Source of the DNA: Bradyrhizobiaceae bacterium
Lineage (GTDB): Bacteria > Pseudomonadota > Alphaproteobacteria > Rhizobiales > Beijerinckiaceae
NCBI GenBank assembly: GCA_036676315.1
Contig: JAKFDB010000067.1
Span: 2,180-66,179, forward strand
DNA: 64,000 nt
Reading direction: 5' to 3'
In this document: positions 5,155 through 35,085 of the stretch, one piece after another
Numbering within the stretch: the stretch's first letter is position 1
Layout of the letters: every line of letters begins with the position of its first letter
Translations under genes and position numbers: made by a program
The notes under the pieces: model-generated
Database searches by the model: none
What the model was told of the DNA's origin: nothing
Seen by the model: only the letters and a program-made list of their open reading frames with translations

Positions 5155-5180
5155 CGGGCCGGAGCGAAGGCTCCGGCCCG
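5155..5180. terminator. GC-rich hairpin between convergent flbD and small protein gene
   Basis: CGGGCCGGAGC-gaag-GCTCCGGCCCG, a perfect 11-bp stem. Confidence 0.7.
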
Positions 5181-5191
5181 TCGAAAACCGC

Positions 5192-5512
5192 TCAGTAGTA
5201 GTAACGGCGGCGATAATAGGGCCGCGGGCGATAATAGTAGCGCGGGCGATAATAGGGACGCCGATAATAGCGCGGACGATAGTAAGGGCGCCGATAATAG
5301 GGGCGGCGATAATAATACTGGCTGAAATCAGCGTCGGTCTTGTCCAGCGCGGCGCTGGTCTCGGCGTCGAGTGCTTCCGGCGCCTTGGGCTCGGGCTCAG
5401 GCGTCGGCGTCGGAACGAGCTTCGGCTGCGCCGCTTCCGCGGCGGCGATGCCGCCGATGCTGGCAGCGGCGAGACCGCCGAACAGCGCCATCACGAATGA
5501 ACGTCTATCCAT
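5192..5512 (-). CDS. Small Tat-signal protein with Tyr/Arg/Pro repeat C-terminus (106 aa)
   Basis: GGAGG RBS and ATG at 5512; MDRRSF twin-arginine motif, hydrophobic stretch, AEA site, Pro-rich linker, LDKTDADFSQ, then 41 aa made only of Y, R and P. Confidence 0.85.
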   Translation of the reverse strand: MDRRSFVMALFGGLAAASIGGIAAAEAAQPKLVPTPTPEPEPKAPEALDAETSAALDKTDADFSQYYYRRPYYRRPYYRPRYYRRPYYRPRYYYRPRPYYRRRYYY

Positions 5513-5716
5513 GCATTCCTCCATCAGGTTCGATCCGAGCGCCGCGTTCCCGCGAGGCCACTCTATTCCCCGTCCGACCATCCGTCACGTCCGGGACGCG
5601 CCGAGAGCCGGCGGGAACTGACGGCGCGGGAGTCCGGCCGTTAGCGCTTTGGGGCGATCTGAGGCGGAATCGCCGCGCCTCGTCAGGGCCCCGCAATTTC
5701 ACGCGCCCGGGCGGCT

Positions 5717-7150
5717 TCATAGCGCACCGAGCGGCCGGCTGACGTCCTCCAGGGAGCGTCGTTCGGCCCGTACCGCGAATTTCCAGGCGATCAGCCCGGC
5801 GCCGATCATCAGCACGGCACCGAACAGATAGCCGCCGAAGACGCTGCCGCGCGAGCCGGTGTCGATCAGCGCGCCGAACAGCCAGGGACCGGCAACGCCG
5901 CCGAGACCGGTGCCGAGCGCATAGAAGACGGCGATGGCGAGCGCCCTGATCTCGAGCGGATAGGTTTCGCTCACCGTCAGATACGCCGAACTTGCCGCGG
6001 CGGATGCGAAGAAGAAGACGACGCTCCAGCAGGCGGTGAGCTGCGCGGCGCTGAGCCAGTCGCGCTCGAAGAGGAAGCCGGTTCCGGCCAGAAGAACGCC
6101 CGACAGCACATAGGTCGCCGCGATCATCGTCCGTCGCCCGAGGCTGTCGAAGAGCCGGCCGAGCAGGAGCGGGCCGAGGAAGTTGCCGGCGGCGAAGGGC
6201 AGGATGAACCAGCCGATCGCATTGGACGGGACATCGTAGAAATCGGTCAGGATCAGCGCATAGCTGAAGAAGATGGCGTTGTAGAAGAAGGCCTGCGAGG
6301 ACATCAGCGCCAGCGCCACCAGCGTGCGCGGGCGGTGGGTCACGAACAGGGTGTGGCCGACTTCCTTCATCGGCGTGAAGCTTCGCGGCCGGAGCGTCAG
6401 CGTCGGCAACGGTAGCTGCGATGCGGGCGCGGGGCCGAAGGCCTCGATCTTCGCCACGACGGCTTCCGCCTCGGCGATGCGACCATGGCTCATCAGCCAG
6501 CGTGGGCTTTCGGGAATCCAGCGACGCAGGACGAGGATGATCAGGCCGAGCGCGGCGCCGATGAAGAAGGCGAGGCGCCAACCGAGCTCCGGATCGATCA
6601 CCCTGGGGTCGAGCAGCACGATGGCGCCGACGCCACCCATCGCGGCGCCGACCCAGAAGGAGCCGTTGATGACGAGGTCGGTCCAGCCGCGGACGCGGGC
6701 CGGGATCAGCTCCTGGATGGTTGAGTTGATCGCCGTGTATTCGCCGCCGATGCCCATTCCGGTCACGAAGCGGAAGAGCAGGAAGCTCCAGAGATTCCAC
6801 GAGAAGGCGGTGGCGGCGGTGGCGGCGAGGTAGACGAAGAGGGTGATCGAGAACAGGCGCTTGCGGCCGAGCCGGTCGGTCAGCCAGCCAAAGAGCAGGG
6901 CGCCGATCACCGCACCGGCCAGATAGGCGGCGCCGGCCAGTCCGACATCGGTATTGCTGAAGCGCAGGACCGGGCTTTCCTTGAGTGCGCCGGAGACTGC
7001 GCCAGCCAGCGTGACCTCGAGCCCGTCGAGGATCCAGGTGATGCCGAGGGCGACGACGACGAGCGTGTGGAAGCGCGACCAGGACAGCCGGTCGAGCCTG
7101 GCTGGAATGTCGGTGACGATCTCGCGGGGGATGTCGCGCGCTTCGTTCAC
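5717..7150 (-). CDS. MFS transporter (sugar/aromatic acid porter-like)
   Basis: About 12 TM segments; GWLTDRLGRKR, GMGIGGEY and IPESPRWL motifs; GTG start. Confidence 0.92.
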   Translation of the reverse strand: MNEARDIPREIVTDIPARLDRLSWSRFHTLVVVALGITWILDGLEVTLAGAVSGALKESPVLRFSNTDVGLAGAAYLAGAVIGALLFGWLTDRLGRKRLFSITLFVYLAATAATAFSWNLWSFLLFRFVTGMGIGGEYTAINSTIQELIPARVRGWTDLVINGSFWVGAAMGGVGAIVLLDPRVIDPELGWRLAFFIGAALGLIILVLRRWIPESPRWLMSHGRIAEAEAVVAKIEAFGPAPASQLPLPTLTLRPRSFTPMKEVGHTLFVTHRPRTLVALALMSSQAFFYNAIFFSYALILTDFYDVPSNAIGWFILPFAAGNFLGPLLLGRLFDSLGRRTMIAATYVLSGVLLAGTGFLFERDWLSAAQLTACWSVVFFFASAAASSAYLTVSETYPLEIRALAIAVFYALGTGLGGVAGPWLFGALIDTGSRGSVFGGYLFGAVLMIGAGLIAWKFAVRAERRSLEDVSRPLGAL

Positions 7151-7189
7151 TGCTCCCGTCCCGTCAAGGCGCGGCTGAGTGGCCGCGAG

Positions 7190-7219
7190 AAGGAAAAGGC
7201 CGGCGCCTTGGCGCCGGCC
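7190..7219 (-). terminator. Rho-independent terminator after second small Tat protein
   Basis: 9-bp stem GGCCGGCGC/GCGCCGGCC followed by TTTTCCTTCT on the minus strand. Confidence 0.7.
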
Positions 7220-7228
7220 CGTTCGGCA

Positions 7229-7573
7229 TCAGCGCACGTAGACGCGGCGCGGGCGTACGACGGTGGTGCGCCGGACCACGACCGGGCGGCGGTAATAGCC
7301 GGGCGGCCGGCGGACTACCGTGGTGCGCCGGACCACGACCGGACGGCGATAATAGCCGGCCGGACGGCGCACGACGGTGGTACGGCGGACGACGGCCTGG
7401 CTGAAATCGGCCTCGGTCTGGTCGAGCCCGGCCTTCAATTCGGGCGCGAGATCCTCGGGATTGGGAACCGGGGTGGCCGCAGCAGGAGCGGCCGCCTGGG
7501 CCAGGCTGACGCCGCCGAGGCCGGCGGCGGCGAGGCCGCCGAAAAGGCTCAGTACAAATGAACGTCTATCCAA
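7229..7573 (-). CDS. Small Tat-signal protein with VVRRTTVVRRPxGYYRRPV repeats (114 aa), paralog of 5192-5512
   Basis: GGAGG RBS and TTG start at 7573; (M)DRRSFVLSLFGGLAAA, LDQTEADFSQ, then 19-aa tandem repeats. Confidence 0.85.
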   Translation of the reverse strand: MDRRSFVLSLFGGLAAAGLGGVSLAQAAAPAAATPVPNPEDLAPELKAGLDQTEADFSQAVVRRTTVVRRPAGYYRRPVVVRRTTVVRRPPGYYRRPVVVRRTTVVRPRRVYVR

Positions 7574-7665
7574 GATTTCCTCCAATAAATCCGGCCCGAA
7601 AGCCCGAGTTCGTCGACCCGGTGCGAGTTGGCTGGCCGAATGCGGCCAGAACGGGGCCATTCGAT

Positions 7666-7690
7666 AACGGTCTGTTCAGGGAAAGGTTCC
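7666..7690 (-). promoter_or_regulatory. EcfG/sigmaT-type promoter GGAAC-N16-CGTT
   Basis: Minus strand reads GGAAC CTTTCCCTGAACAGAC CGTT, about 90 nt upstream of the TTG at 7573. Confidence 0.75.
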
Positions 7691-7712: not shown

Positions 7713-7729
7713 TTAACCACTCGTTCACC
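7713..7729 (+). promoter_or_regulatory. CtrA-binding box upstream of flhA
   Basis: TTAA-CCACTCG-TTCACC, one mismatch to TTAA-N7-TTAAC. Confidence 0.75.
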
Positions 7730-7798
7730 ATGCACCCGGCAAGAATTGCCGGGTACGGGTCGCGCCTCGCGATGACCGTGCATGGGGCGGGCTACTCG

Positions 7799-31397: not shown

Positions 31398-33764
31398 CTA
31401 CACCGGCGGCGCGTTGGCCTTGCGGACGCGCTCGCCGACCGCCCGGAAGAGACCTTCGAAGGGGCGGAAGACGAAGCGGATCGTCGAGCGGCCGGGCGGC
31501 ACCTGCACGGCGCGGAAGATGACGTTCGCCCGAAGCAGCTCGGCCGGCTTGCCGTTGACCTCGACCTGCCACCAGGGCTGCCAGACATCGTTGAGGACGA
31601 CGAAGCCGCCGCGCGGCGCCTCCGCCTCCAGCGTGACCTCCGTGGTGCCGTAATCGCGGATGCTCACCGTGCCGGGCCCGGCAGCGCCGCCCGGCAGTAC
31701 GGGCGGCGTCCTGTCGAGCAACACCGTGCGCCGCGGATCGAAGCCGGCGGGCCATTGGCCGCTCTTCAGGATGGCGTCGAAATCGGCAGCTTGCGCCTCG
31801 CTGACGAGCAGGACGCGCGGCAGGGCGCGCGGGTTCTCGTAGATGAAGGCGTCGGCAGTGCGGGCGATCTGGATGAGGTCGCCGGGCTTCAGCGCCTTGT
31901 CGATCTGCTCGACCGGCACGCCGGTGGCGATGAAGCGCAGGCCGAGCATGTCGGCGAGCAGCGAGCGATAGGACGGCATCAGCGCCGAGAAGGTCCGCTG
32001 GTCGGGCAGGGCGACATGATCGCCGGCCCCGGTGGCGGCGCTGTAGAGGCCGAGCCGCAGGGGATTGTAGCCCAGCGTGTTGTCGAGGCCGTGGACGAGG
32101 CTGGCATTGGGCCAGTGGAAATCGATGCCGGCGAGCTCGATACGGTCGCGCCGGTCAGGCCCGGCGGTGCGGGCGGTCTCACGCTTGAGCAGTCCGATGG
32201 TCTCGTTGCTGCTGTCGGCGCGCAGCACCTCGTATCTGGATGCGGGCAGCGCCGTCGATTCGCTCGGGCCGTTGTTGACCGAGAGATCGATGGTCATGGT
32301 CATGGCGAGAATGATGGCAGCGCCCATGCCGGCGCCCTGCAGGGCCAGCCCGCGCGCCGCGACGAGGGCGCCTGCGACCAGCAGCAGGCAGAGTGCGGCG
32401 GTGATCAGCGGGATTGCGGCCACGCCGAGCCTTCCGCTCGTCCAGGCCAGCCAGATGGCGAGGCCGAAGGCGCCGCCGAGCAGCGCAACCTCGAGGACGA
32501 TCTGCCAGGGCCGGGGCCGCGGCGCCGTATCCGTCAGGACGAGGTGGGTGAAATAGCCGCCGAGGATCGCGAGCAGTGCGCCGAGGATGAAGAGCGCATC
32601 GGCCGGCCGGCGATAGAGATCGATGCCGGGAAGCGCGGCGAAGAGGATCTGGAAGCCCGGCGTGTAGCGTCCGAGCGCGTAGACCAGCACGAGGATGGCG
32701 GCGATGCTGAGCGCCACGATCTCGCGCCGCCAGAGGCCGCCGCGCACGAGGCCGACACCGACGACCAGCAGCAACGGCAGCAGGCCGAGATAGAGCTCGC
32801 TCATGTTGCGGGCGAGATAGAGATCGACCGGGCCGAAGCGTGCCTCCCAGGCCGGGCTCGGCGGCCCCCAGAAATTCTCCAGCGGGCCGGCGGCGCCATA
32901 GAGATTGGCGACGATCCCGGTCAGCAGCGAGGCCGGGTGCAGCGAGCCCTTGCCGGCACCGGCAAGGTCGATCGCGGGCCGGTTGGATTCCTGGGCCAGG
33001 AAGGCGGTGAGCAGGATCGGTACAGCGGCGACCAGCACCGCGCCGACGACGCCGAGGCAAAGCGGCATCAGGCTGGCCCGGAGGGCCTTCAGCGGCCGGC
33101 TCGCCATGGCGATCGCGGCGAGCACCAGGCCGGAGAGGACATAGACGCCGATCAGCGCGACCTGGTCGCGCCCGAGCACCATGAAGCCGGCGACGATGCC
33201 GGCGCAGAAGCCATAGCTCCAGGAGCCGCGCTCCAGCGCCCGCGAGAGCAGCAGCAGGGTGACGGCGAAATAAGCCAGGCTGAGTACCTGGCCGACATGC
33301 TGGATGCGCCAGGCGGCGGCGGCCCCGAAAGCGAAGGCGAGGGCGCAGACCACAGCGCCGGCCGGATGCCAGTTCCGGTCGCGGAAGACCAGGGCGAGGC
33401 AGAGCGCGCCGACCAGCAGGGAGCCGAGCAGCGCCCCGTCGCTCCAGCGGAAATCCGGGGTCGGGTTGACCAGGGCGATCAGGGCGAAGGGCGGCGAGAA
33501 GATCAGCGATTGCGGATCGGCGACCTGCGGCGAGCCGGCGAAGACGAAGGGCGTCCAGAACGGCGAAAGCCCCTTGTGCAGGGCGCTGGCGAGGAACTGC
33601 AATTGCGGGTGGAAATGCGCCTTGGCGTCCCAGGGAACGGTGAGGACGCCGGAAAGCCAGGGCCAGGACAGGGCGAGCCAGGCGGCGCAGATGATCAGGA
33701 AGACCTTGGCGACGGGCCAGGGTGCGCGCGCTGGCGCGGGATCGGGACGCTCTTGCTCGGACAT
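31398..33764 (-). CDS. YfhO-like polytopic membrane protein (putative GT-C glycosyltransferase)
   Basis: About 13 TM segments, N-terminal PWDAKAHF...WTPFVFAGSPQVADPQ and C-terminal GFVVLNDVWQPWW...RANVIFRAVQVPPG typical of YfhO. Confidence 0.7.
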   Translation of the reverse strand: MSEQERPDPAPARAPWPVAKVFLIICAAWLALSWPWLSGVLTVPWDAKAHFHPQLQFLASALHKGLSPFWTPFVFAGSPQVADPQSLIFSPPFALIALVNPTPDFRWSDGALLGSLLVGALCLALVFRDRNWHPAGAVVCALAFAFGAAAAWRIQHVGQVLSLAYFAVTLLLLSRALERGSWSYGFCAGIVAGFMVLGRDQVALIGVYVLSGLVLAAIAMASRPLKALRASLMPLCLGVVGAVLVAAVPILLTAFLAQESNRPAIDLAGAGKGSLHPASLLTGIVANLYGAAGPLENFWGPPSPAWEARFGPVDLYLARNMSELYLGLLPLLLVVGVGLVRGGLWRREIVALSIAAILVLVYALGRYTPGFQILFAALPGIDLYRRPADALFILGALLAILGGYFTHLVLTDTAPRPRPWQIVLEVALLGGAFGLAIWLAWTSGRLGVAAIPLITAALCLLLVAGALVAARGLALQGAGMGAAIILAMTMTIDLSVNNGPSESTALPASRYEVLRADSSNETIGLLKRETARTAGPDRRDRIELAGIDFHWPNASLVHGLDNTLGYNPLRLGLYSAATGAGDHVALPDQRTFSALMPSYRSLLADMLGLRFIATGVPVEQIDKALKPGDLIQIARTADAFIYENPRALPRVLLVSEAQAADFDAILKSGQWPAGFDPRRTVLLDRTPPVLPGGAAGPGTVSIRDYGTTEVTLEAEAPRGGFVVLNDVWQPWWQVEVNGKPAELLRANVIFRAVQVPPGRSTIRFVFRPFEGLFRAVGERVRKANAPPV

Positions 33765-33788
33765 GGCCGCTTCCTGCCCCAGGCCCCG

Positions 33789-33836
33789 CACGGGATCAAT
33801 GCCCGACACGGGATCAGTGCCCGGCGCGAGGTCAAT
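33789..33836. repeat. 18-nt-period tandem repeat at the ribA 3' end
   Basis: CACGGGATCAATGCCCG (33789), CACGGGATCAGTGCCCG (33807) and a degenerate third copy CGCGAGGTCAAT overlapping the ribA stop. Confidence 0.6.
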
Positions 33837-34959
33837 CCTTCGGTGCGGCCCGCGCCATCAGCGCGTCCATGTCGATGAAATGGCCGGCCCGGTCGCGCTT
33901 CGAGGCGAGGTAGCGGACATTGTGGACGTTGGGGCGCCCGAGCACGCGCTGGGTCGCCGCGACTTCCAGCCCGGCCGCCTTGATCGCGCCGACCTTGAGC
34001 GGGTTGTTGGTCAGCGCCGTGATCCTGCTGACGCCGAGCTGGGTCAGCATCGCGGCGGCGAAGTCGAAATGGCGCTGGTCGAGATCGAAGCCGAGCACTT
34101 CGTCGGCGTCGTAGGTGTCCCAGCCCTGGCTCTGCAGCTTGTAGGCGCGCATCTTGTTGGAGATGCCGTTGCCGCGGCCTTCCTGGTCGAGATAGAGCAG
34201 GATGCCGCCCTCGTTCTGGGCCATCCACTCGACCGTCTCGCGCAACTGGTCGCCGCAATCGCATTTCAGCGAGCCGAACAGGTCGCCGGTCAGGCAGGCG
34301 GAGTGCAGGCGCACCGGTACGGCGGCCGAGAGGTCCGGCTTGCCGACGATGATCGCCACCTGATCGCGCAGGCCCTCGCCGCCGCGGAAGACCACGAATT
34401 CGGTATCGGGCGCGCCTTCCAGCGGCACCGGCGCGCGGCCGACGATGGCGAGCGTCGCCACCTGCGCGGCACGGTAGCCGTTGATGGCGGTGATGTTGGC
34501 CTCGACCAGCGGCTCCCCGGCGATTTGCGCCGCGGCAACCGGCACCAGGACCACCGCCGGCAGGACGAGCGCAAGCCGTGCCAGTTCGAGTGCCGCGGTG
34601 TCGAGCGCGTTGGCCGGACCGACCGGCGCATCGACGCGCGCCTCGATCTTGAGGGCAAGGGCTTCGACGCGGGCGATGTCGATTGCGGGCATGGCGAGGA
34701 CGCCGGTCTCGCTGCGGCCCTTGGCTCCAAGGCGGCGCAGGCGTGCGGCGCTCAGCACCAGCCGGGCATTGCCTTCGGCGAGGCCGTCGAGCCGCCCGGC
34801 GATGTCGGTGTCGGCGAGCTCTGCCGAAAGCGCCAGCGCCAGCGTCTCGCCGTCGCGCAGCAGCACGGGTCGGCCGGCACGGAATTCGGCGAGTGCCCGG
34901 TCGACTGCGATGATCTCGGTCTCGCCGGGACGGCCGAAAAGCGTACGCGACTTAGGCAT
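33832..34959 (-). CDS. ribA: GTP cyclohydrolase II with degenerate RibB-like N-terminal domain
   Basis: VRLHSACLTGDLFGSLKCDCG Zn motif, QEGRG and TNNPLK. Confidence 0.92.
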   Translation of the reverse strand: MPKSRTLFGRPGETEIIAVDRALAEFRAGRPVLLRDGETLALALSAELADTDIAGRLDGLAEGNARLVLSAARLRRLGAKGRSETGVLAMPAIDIARVEALALKIEARVDAPVGPANALDTAALELARLALVLPAVVLVPVAAAQIAGEPLVEANITAINGYRAAQVATLAIVGRAPVPLEGAPDTEFVVFRGGEGLRDQVAIIVGKPDLSAAVPVRLHSACLTGDLFGSLKCDCGDQLRETVEWMAQNEGGILLYLDQEGRGNGISNKMRAYKLQSQGWDTYDADEVLGFDLDQRHFDFAAAMLTQLGVSRITALTNNPLKVGAIKAAGLEVAATQRVLGRPNVHNVRYLASKRDRAGHFIDMDALMARAAPKD

Positions 34960-35060
34960 GGCTGCGTCCGTCAGATTGCGCCGGCTAGCGGCGGAGGAGA
35001 TGGTCTAATACGCTCGTCTCGGCGGGACGGATGCCATCCGGCGCAATACGGCGTTGCTAC

Positions 35061-35085
35061 AACGTGTCCAGTCGTGTGTGGTTCC
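35061..35085 (-). promoter_or_regulatory. EcfG/sigmaT-type promoter upstream of ribA
   Basis: Minus strand GGAAC CACACACGACTGGACA CGTT (N16), about 100 nt upstream of the ATG. Confidence 0.75.

Follow-up and report, generated by a model that had tools for sequence, protein, structure and literature searches.

PepA and PepB, two arginine-rich small proteins with twin-arginine-type leaders encoded between flhA and flbD in Bosea: candidate stress-driven polycations of the cell envelope

The stretch of DNA analyzed here, hereafter the window, comprises 64,000 nucleotides from a Bradyrhizobiaceae bacterium (GenBank assembly GCA_036676315.1, contig JAKFDB010000067.1, positions 2,180 to 66,179 of the forward strand); within it we studied two paralogous minus-strand genes, designated pepA (5192..5512) and pepB (7229..7573), that encode small, presumably secreted proteins with polycationic tails. 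We consider it roughly an even chance (a probability of about 0.5) that PepA and PepB are unmodified, disordered polycations, expressed from a stress-type promoter, exported by way of twin-arginine translocation (Tat), and acting on the anionic polymers of the cell envelope. A first-pass annotation, made from the sequence alone, had recognized a paralogous pair with a Tat-type leader, an AxA cleavage site, a conserved junction motif, and low-complexity polycationic tails, all of which we can support; its further interpretation, according to which the pair would follow the logic of the ribosomally synthesized and post-translationally modified peptides (RiPPs), with an acidic pro-region masking the core, we had to abandon. 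That annotation had moreover overlooked three features: a putative promoter of the EcfG type ahead of pepB, which is a new point; the size of the family; and the virtual absence of lysine from the tails.

The two open reading frames, their GGAGG ribosome-binding sites, and a transporter gene of the major facilitator superfamily (MFS) between them were found exactly as annotated, and a recount of the tails returned the same composition, repeats, and YYRRP motifs. The pepA gene encodes 106 amino acids from an ATG codon and pepB 114 from a TTG, each start being preceded at a distance of 5 nucleotides by the ribosome-binding site (5518..5522 and 7579..7583, respectively, minus strand), which element is kept in the Bosea upstream alignment in the instance of pepA. 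Both proteins open with a shared leader of 27 residues, (M)DRRSF(V/L)xxLFGGLAAA...A(E/Q)A, with the AxA at its end, the predicted signal peptide thus occupying residues 1–27 in PepA (nucleotides 5512-5432, MDRRSF...AEA) as well as in PepB (nucleotides 7573-7493, (M)DRRSF...AQA). There follows a linker of 32–38 residues, rich in proline, alanine, and glutamate, with a net charge of -5 and ending in LD(K/Q)T(D/E)ADFSQ: in PepA this linker spans residues 28–65 (nucleotides 5431-5318) and carries the LDKTDADFSQ helix; in PepB, residues 28–59 (nucleotides 7492-7397), with the version LDQTEADFSQ. Up to this point the two proteins are alike—BLASTP aligned them at 58% identity over residues 1–65 only, with nothing alignable beyond.

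The tail of PepA (residues 66–106, nucleotides 5317-5195) consists of 41 amino acids that are exactly Y19/R15/P7, with a net charge of +15; that of PepB (residues 60–114, nucleotides 7396-7232) has 55 amino acids, a net charge of +18, and a construction in 19-residue units of the form VVVRRTTVVRRPxGYYRRP, present as two full copies plus 17 residues. The corresponding 57-nucleotide unit was detected by Tandem Repeats Finder in 2.6 copies with 82% nucleotide matches, the copies being near-identical as protein. The sequence YYRRP occurs three times in PepA and twice in PepB. About one-third of either tail is arginine and none of it lysine, the remainder being tyrosine and proline in PepA or repeats of valine, threonine, proline, and tyrosine in PepB. 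When we ran AlphaFold2 on PepA with the family alignment, helices were placed at residues 3–25 (the signal) and 50–68 (the motif), while the tail was left as coil, at a mean predicted local distance difference test score of 60; the tails of both proteins are predicted to be intrinsically disordered.

A codon-by-codon comparison with the nearest species yielded ratios of non-synonymous to synonymous substitution (dN/dS) of approximately 0.15–0.3 for the leaders, indicating purifying selection, and of approximately 0–0.05 for the tails, which halves are, among close relatives, more conserved than the leaders. The pepA tail exhibited 7–10 synonymous and 0 non-synonymous changes with respect to three relatives (L022, L052, and L033); for the pepB tail, set against L022, the counts were 15 and 2, respectively. 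Both genes are real and their tails functional, purifying selection acting on both halves of each. Over longer distances within Bosea the tail of PepB shifts in type—to V/R/T, V/R/E, His/Arg-rich, or Pro/Arg/His-rich compositions—and that of PepA stays YYYYRRPRYYARPRYY-like, so that the constant property is a strongly cationic, low-complexity tail.

The pair belongs to a large and hitherto undescribed family. A search with PepB retrieved 124 close homologues, nearly all of them from Bosea, and every one shares the leader and the LDxADA(D/E)FSQ motif, an agreement well beyond chance; the first-pass annotation had made its interpretation depend on precisely that conservation. All of the homologues from named organisms derive from Bosea or from unclassified Hyphomicrobiales genome bins, and the LDxADAxFSQ version of the motif is restricted to Bosea and its close relatives. 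The host genome itself (G000; 99.97% complete, in 198 contigs) contains at least five paralogues: in addition to pepA and pepB, the gene for paralogue C (L003 1501-1854, on G000:C3), which encodes a Y/R/P/W tail and has, 61 nucleotides upstream, an EcfG-like box; that for paralogue D (L004 1117-1341, on G000:C191), of 74 amino acids, directly downstream from the gene of an NtrC-type activator; and that for paralogue E (G000:C1:19924-20235), whose His/Arg tail ends in a Cys...Cys hairpin. In a profile search of 1.84 billion representative proteins (E <= 1e-3), we obtained 209 clusters at 50% identity, nearly all of them of 90–120 amino acids and aligning over their entire length; the 139 matches among these that were new sequences included 134 with RRx[FLIVC] and 129 with a basic tail. 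A second profile gave at least 1,293 clusters at 90% identity, which entries are annotated as 'hypothetical protein' and, once, under the NCBI name 'twin-arginine translocation signal domain-containing protein'. Among the genomes sampled, the family occurred in 16 of 61 from the same GTDB family and in 17 of 201 from the order.

Scans of PepA and PepB with Pfam, NCBIfam, and PADLOC returned no match; a profile search of the PDB sequences found nothing but a signal-peptide look-alike; and a search of the literature for Tat-exported small proteins rich in arginine and tyrosine revealed no account of this family. Comparable in character are the BA14K proteins (PF07886), along with other exported small proteins of the Alphaproteobacteria rich in arginine, tyrosine, and histidine, which are likewise exported and small, possess a cationic region rich in arginine, tyrosine, histidine, and tryptophan, and are common in the Hyphomicrobiales, where they have been linked to the envelope and to stress; PepA and PepB nevertheless lack a Pfam match to BA14K at E <= 1 and the Cys-containing C-terminal domain, and their leader is of the Tat type where that of BA14K is of the Sec type. 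We also observed, in other genera, a subfamily with a Cys-x(n)-Cys hairpin tail (e.g., ...RRVCRRVWRHGRWRRRCW...; loci L102, L103, L105, L106, and L107), all five examples of which have EcfG-like promoters 63–104 nucleotides upstream.

As to the route of export, the family alignments show no variation at R3, R4, and F6—the sequence D-R-R-S-F-V of PepA and PepB comparing with the twin-arginine consensus (S/T)-R-R-x-F-L-K—and the host genome encodes TatC (PF00902, at G000:C13, 237 bits). Like known Tat substrates, the two proteins combine that invariant RRxF(L/V) with a moderately hydrophobic, Gly/Ala-rich h-region and an AxA site; unlike them, they would present to the translocase a polycation of some 80 residues, disordered and without a cofactor, in place of a folded cofactor-containing enzyme, behind an n-region of only 2 residues. 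The composition of the tails speaks to the same question: over the family they contain 41% arginine, 17% tyrosine, 15% valine, and 8% proline, with only 0.2% lysine. Arginine reportedly passes through SecYEG much more slowly than any other residue and is under-represented among secreted proteins, whereas lysine can pass in a deprotonated form (PMC10465204); and the Tat system accepts unstructured hydrophilic chains of up to 100–120 residues (PMC6708511). Since the tails are rich in arginine and nearly free of lysine, that slowness of arginine through Sec strengthens the argument for Tat and would account for the leader's unvarying twin arginines, and a small, hydrophilic, disordered polycation built on arginine only is the type of cargo that would need it.

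Upstream from pepB we recognized a candidate promoter for the general stress sigma factor EcfG, GGAACCTTTCCCTGAACAGACCGTT (7666..7690, minus strand), of the form GGAACC-N16-CGTT, which ends 92 nucleotides before the start codon and agrees with the published EcfG consensus GGAAC-N16/17-CGTT (PMC6599016). A relaxed version of the motif was found at a fixed distance in 53 of the 58 Bosea upstream regions of pepB, versus none of the 58 on the opposite strand; and, again at a fixed distance, in 32 of the 62 upstream regions of pepA, likewise with no occurrence on the opposite strand. Across Bosea the boxes and their spacing are constant and the spacer sequence is variable, as would be expected of a promoter for an extracytoplasmic-function (ECF) sigma factor. 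In six of the seven loci that lack pepB, a GGAAC...GTT promoter stands directly before the MFS gene, and in the window that gene probably belongs to the same stress-driven unit as pepB, whose own induction by stress we would expect from the promoter sequence. In the host genome the GGAACC-N16-CGTT motif also precedes hallmark genes of the stress response, the genes concerned being those for CsbD, DUF3309, PepSY_2, and phasin proteins, together with ribA and the gene of a further secreted cationic peptide. PepB resembles the small proteins of the PhyR–NepR–EcfG regulon, such as CsbD and DUF3309 (PMC6599016), in its promoter at the usual distance, its small size, its predicted direction to the envelope, and its unknown function; it differs in that neither protein of the pair has any sequence relationship to the described members, and in that the motif is missing before the pepA of the window and before most of the relatives outside Bosea.

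Two of these occurrences of the strict motif may be recorded in their own right. One lies within the window itself, before a ribA-like gene of 375 amino acids (approximately 31398-35085; C67). The other, on the minus strand of contig C100 of the host genome (G000:C100, motif index 36958), stands ahead of a gene for a secreted cationic peptide of 76 amino acids with a Sec-type signal (MKKLMLMVALV...) and a body rich in histidine, arginine, tyrosine, tryptophan, and glycine, which peptide has no sequence relationship to PepA or PepB.

Taking these data together, we propose that PepA and PepB would be ordinary small proteins made on the ribosome, and not precursors of a modified peptide, in which three modules may be distinguished: a cleavable twin-arginine signal; an acidic linker that would end in an amphipathic helix and a glutamine junction (LDxxDAxFSQ); and a disordered arginine-rich tail. 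Transcription would proceed mainly from the EcfG-type promoter upstream from pepB, which would probably read into the MFS gene as well, pepA having, in most Bosea species, a putative promoter of its own. The Tat machinery would then carry the precursor across the inner membrane, signal peptidase I would cleave it after the AxA, and a product of approximately 10 kDa would remain in the periplasm or the envelope. There, the polycationic aromatic tail might bind and condense anionic polymers—the head groups of lipopolysaccharide or phospholipids, peptidoglycan, periplasmic glucans, and possibly extracellular DNA or polyphosphate—which condensation might stabilize the envelope under stress. Tat dependence, cleavage of the signal, induction by stress, localization, and the binding of polyanions are all steps that we infer.

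Several observations weigh against this proposal. With respect to export, neither PepA nor PepB matched the curated models PF10518 (TAT_signal) and TIGR01409, and the paralogues C and E scored 13–14 bits with the curated Tat models versus a cut-off of 22.7 (E = 0.05–0.1); with these scores below the threshold, Tat export is therefore something that we infer rather than demonstrate, and, the n-region being so short, export through Sec is possible. With respect to the promoter, the clade to which the pepA of the window belongs has no recognizable EcfG box; an EcfG-like box precedes only 5 of the 29 relatives from outside Bosea, all of these being of the Cys-hairpin subtype; and the strict motif is barely enriched over the whole genome, with 51 occurrences compared to 22–38 in shuffled sequences and 47 in the reversed genome. 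Since that count is not clearly above the controls, the assignment of the promoter rests on its conservation, its position, and the genes that it accompanies. In addition, the linker of charge -5 and the conserved glutamine junction are a hint of an extra processing step that the proposal would render superfluous; the presence of relatives near flhA or flbD in three other lineages could indicate a flagellar connection instead; and the choice of an envelope polyanion as the target is pure conjecture on our part.

If the proposal should prove correct, the consequences would extend beyond this locus. An unannotated envelope family of the Alphaproteobacteria, with more than 1,200 sequence clusters, several paralogues per genome, some 41% of arginine, and almost no lysine, would offer a natural test of two ideas on protein export: that arginine is rate-limiting for Sec, and that Tat takes short, unfolded hydrophilic chains. 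The invariant twin-arginine leader on an arginine-rich disordered cargo would then represent the physiological use of that tolerance of Tat; and polycations tied to the general stress response would be a testable candidate for the protection of the envelope under desiccation or osmotic stress. More tentatively, and in a form that we regard as rather unlikely, the family might constitute a stress-induced 'periplasmic protamine', whose Arg/Tyr or Arg/Val polycations would be bound to Tat because Sec cannot move runs of arginine, and which, under desiccation or osmotic stress, would form a protective gel or coacervate together with periplasmic glucans, lipopolysaccharide, and peptidoglycan. With them, Tat would have its first natural class of unfolded cargo, and the bacterial envelope its first case of cation–pi phase separation.

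Among the alternatives, the one closest to the first-pass annotation holds that the pair are pro-peptides or RiPP-like precursors, in which leader and acidic pro-region silence a polycationic core until a protease cuts at DFS/Q—perhaps with formation of pyroglutamate—and frees an antimicrobial, DNA-condensing, or tyrosine-cross-linked matrix peptide. Certain data do fit this scheme: leader and junction motif are conserved, no fewer than 85% of the members of the wider family have the glutamine at the boundary of linker and tail, usually with a tyrosine after it, the motif falls within a helix in the AlphaFold2 model that could serve as a recognition element, and the tails of PepB differ strongly among distant Bosea (V/R/T, H/R, and P/R/H types). 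A processing site at the glutamine junction is possible. RiPP precursors such as the bufferins and the classical leader–core peptides resemble PepA and PepB, too, in that a conserved N-terminal part is joined to a C-terminal part of low complexity and that each genome has several paralogues.

Against the scheme stand, in the first place, the neighbouring genes. Neither an enzyme of modification nor a recognition-element protein, a protease, or a dedicated exporter (an ABC exporter included) was found beside any of the five paralogues, at the approximately 70 syntenic Bosea loci, or beside the relatives in other genera; the statement of the first-pass annotation that no modifying enzyme adjoins the pair therefore holds, the neighbours being fliN, flbD, flhA, and the MFS gene. 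The paralogues C, D, and E and the family members of other genera are surrounded by unrelated genes, and a search for tyrosinase (PF00264), performed without a positive control, found none in the virtually complete host genome. In the second place, the conserved leader and variable core that the RiPP interpretation supposes are at odds with the selection measured, the tails (dN/dS ~0-0.05) being better conserved than the leaders (~0.15-0.3); which pattern, together with the absence of partner enzymes, removes the main supports of that interpretation. What was taken for a RiPP leader would be an export signal plus a linker, and the genes are core and syntenic, outside the variable islands. Finally, a linker of charge -5 is unable to neutralize a tail of +15 or +18, so that masking of the core is impossible. 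For these reasons we consider a pro-peptide improbable, and the arrangement of leader plus repeat core a tempting misreading in this instance.

We attach the same low likelihood to the second alternative, that pepB is a flagellar gene of the class-III type, under FlbD and sigma54 and in company with the rod, ring, and hook genes, whose product would aid the periplasmic assembly of the flagellum or surface attachment. The suggestion arises from a perfect palindrome of the FlbD/ftr type, CCCGGCAAGAATTGCCGGG (7735..7753, without strand), in the intergenic region between pepB and flhA, the center of which lies 85 nucleotides from the start of a sigma54-like -24/-12 match on the pepB strand, TGGCCCCGTTCTGGC (7645..7659, minus strand; TGGCCC-N5-TGGC). 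The ftr assignment is based on the host genome's own flgI, flgE, and flgF/G promoters, which possess a similar geometry, although with the palindrome at 93–109 nucleotides in place of 85; and a scan of the genome for the composite of palindrome plus -24/-12 motif returned 6 instances, compared to 0–1 in shuffled sequences. The simple sigma54 pattern, for its part, is not above chance in the window (75 matches vs approximately 68 expected). As to position, the order flhA / pepB–MFS–pepA / flbD–fliN is conserved across approximately 70 Bosea loci, with the group lying between flhA and flbD throughout the genus, although the MFS gene, pepB, or both are missing in a few species. Two related genera have relatives in or beside the flhA–flbD interval, and a different family of the order has one at 1.3 kb from flhA, the intervening genes differing in each instance.

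The promoter elements themselves, however, argue against pepB as the target. The core of the palindrome is perfect or has at most 2 mismatches in all 64 of the 64 Bosea loci, including those without pepB, where it is equally invariant, and it adjoins a nearly as conserved CtrA-like box, TTAACCACTCGTTCAC (7713-7728), just upstream from flhA. Moreover, approximately 15 pepB-bearing species have lost the GG of the -24 element and retained the EcfG boxes. The candidacy of pepB as a class III gene was demoted on these two grounds, the palindrome was assigned to flhA, and the sigma54-like match is probably located in the 5' untranslated region of pepB instead of being a working promoter. A palindrome beside a CtrA-like box fits the class II pattern of Caulobacter, in which FlbD represses (PMC3930126), and suggests that flhA may be under a control of that style, with activation by CtrA and repression by FlbD. 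Nor does the wider distribution favor a flagellar function: of 20 loci examined in other genera, 19 are not close to flhA, flbD, or fliN, and the paralogues C, D, and E are encoded elsewhere in the genome.

In the course of these comparisons we noted other sites worth recording. The same type of palindrome is present in the host genome at C9:33396, C133:7378, C118:8465, and C169:1011, in each instance 93–109 bp upstream from a sigma54 -24/-12 promoter and separated from it by AT-rich DNA that resembles a binding region of the integration host factor (IHF); the genes concerned are flgI, flgE, flgF/G, and one unidentified, and the four sites may be predicted to form a compact FlbD regulon of this Bosea. 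Family members near flagellar genes outside Bosea were located at L115/L116 5001-5294, L117 5001-5453, and L130 9156-9539. A hairpin, CTGGCCG-CATT-CGGCCAG (window approximately 7615-7633, minus strand), is conserved in the predicted leader RNA of pepB and overlaps the sigma54-like match.

A third alternative, to which we assign a smaller likelihood yet, sees in the pair an unmodified, secreted proline/arginine-rich antimicrobial for use in competition, with the MFS protein as exporter or immunity factor. The animal prepro-forms of Bac7, PR-39, oncocin, and apidaecin possess a signal, an anionic pro-region, and a cationic disordered peptide rich in arginine, proline, and tyrosine, a layout similar to that of PepA and PepB; and the PepA tail, with its tyrosine, arginine, and proline and its RP and PRP-like spacing, resembles such proline-rich peptides. 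The MFS gene is, in addition, retained between pepA and pepB in most Bosea, and the tails of PepB diversify among species. The animal peptides nevertheless differ, in that pepA and pepB are chromosomal genes of a bacterium, are not homologous to them, encode more tyrosine or valine than proline, and have no evident secretion past the periplasm: a Tat or Sec leader would reach only the periplasm of the producer itself, no outer-membrane export system being linked to the locus. The MFS protein (5717..7150, minus strand; 477 amino acids; Pfam Sugar_tr, E = 6e-45) is of the Sugar_tr or metabolite:H+ symporter type and not a peptide exporter, and is dispensable in some species, the gene being absent in L029, L038, and L077. 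The locus is furthermore core and syntenic, with a promoter of the stress type, and gave no match in the PADLOC library of defence systems.

Least probable of all is an uncleaved signal anchor with the arginine-rich tail held in the cytoplasm by the positive-inside rule, there to bind, at the membrane, ribosomes or nucleic acids: a charge of +15 to +18 in the tail weighs strongly against translocation, and disordered tails rich in arginine and tyrosine are classic binders of nucleic acids, but the N-terminal flank is positive (MDRR) and the 15 residues past the hydrophobic segment neutral to acidic, which charges favor an orientation with the N-terminus in and the C-terminus out, while the A-x-A that the family conserves where the hydrophobic region ends and the invariant RRxF, a feature of Tat recognition, likewise argue in favor of export.

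Two strong hairpins resembling terminators, one behind each stop codon, complete the features of the locus, both on the minus strand. The one 3' of pepB (7197..7220) has a GC stem of 10 bp followed by UUUUCCUUCUC. The other, 3' of pepA (5155..5180), has a stem of 11 bp and a fold z-score of -4.2, and, facing as it does the end of flbD, may act in both directions.

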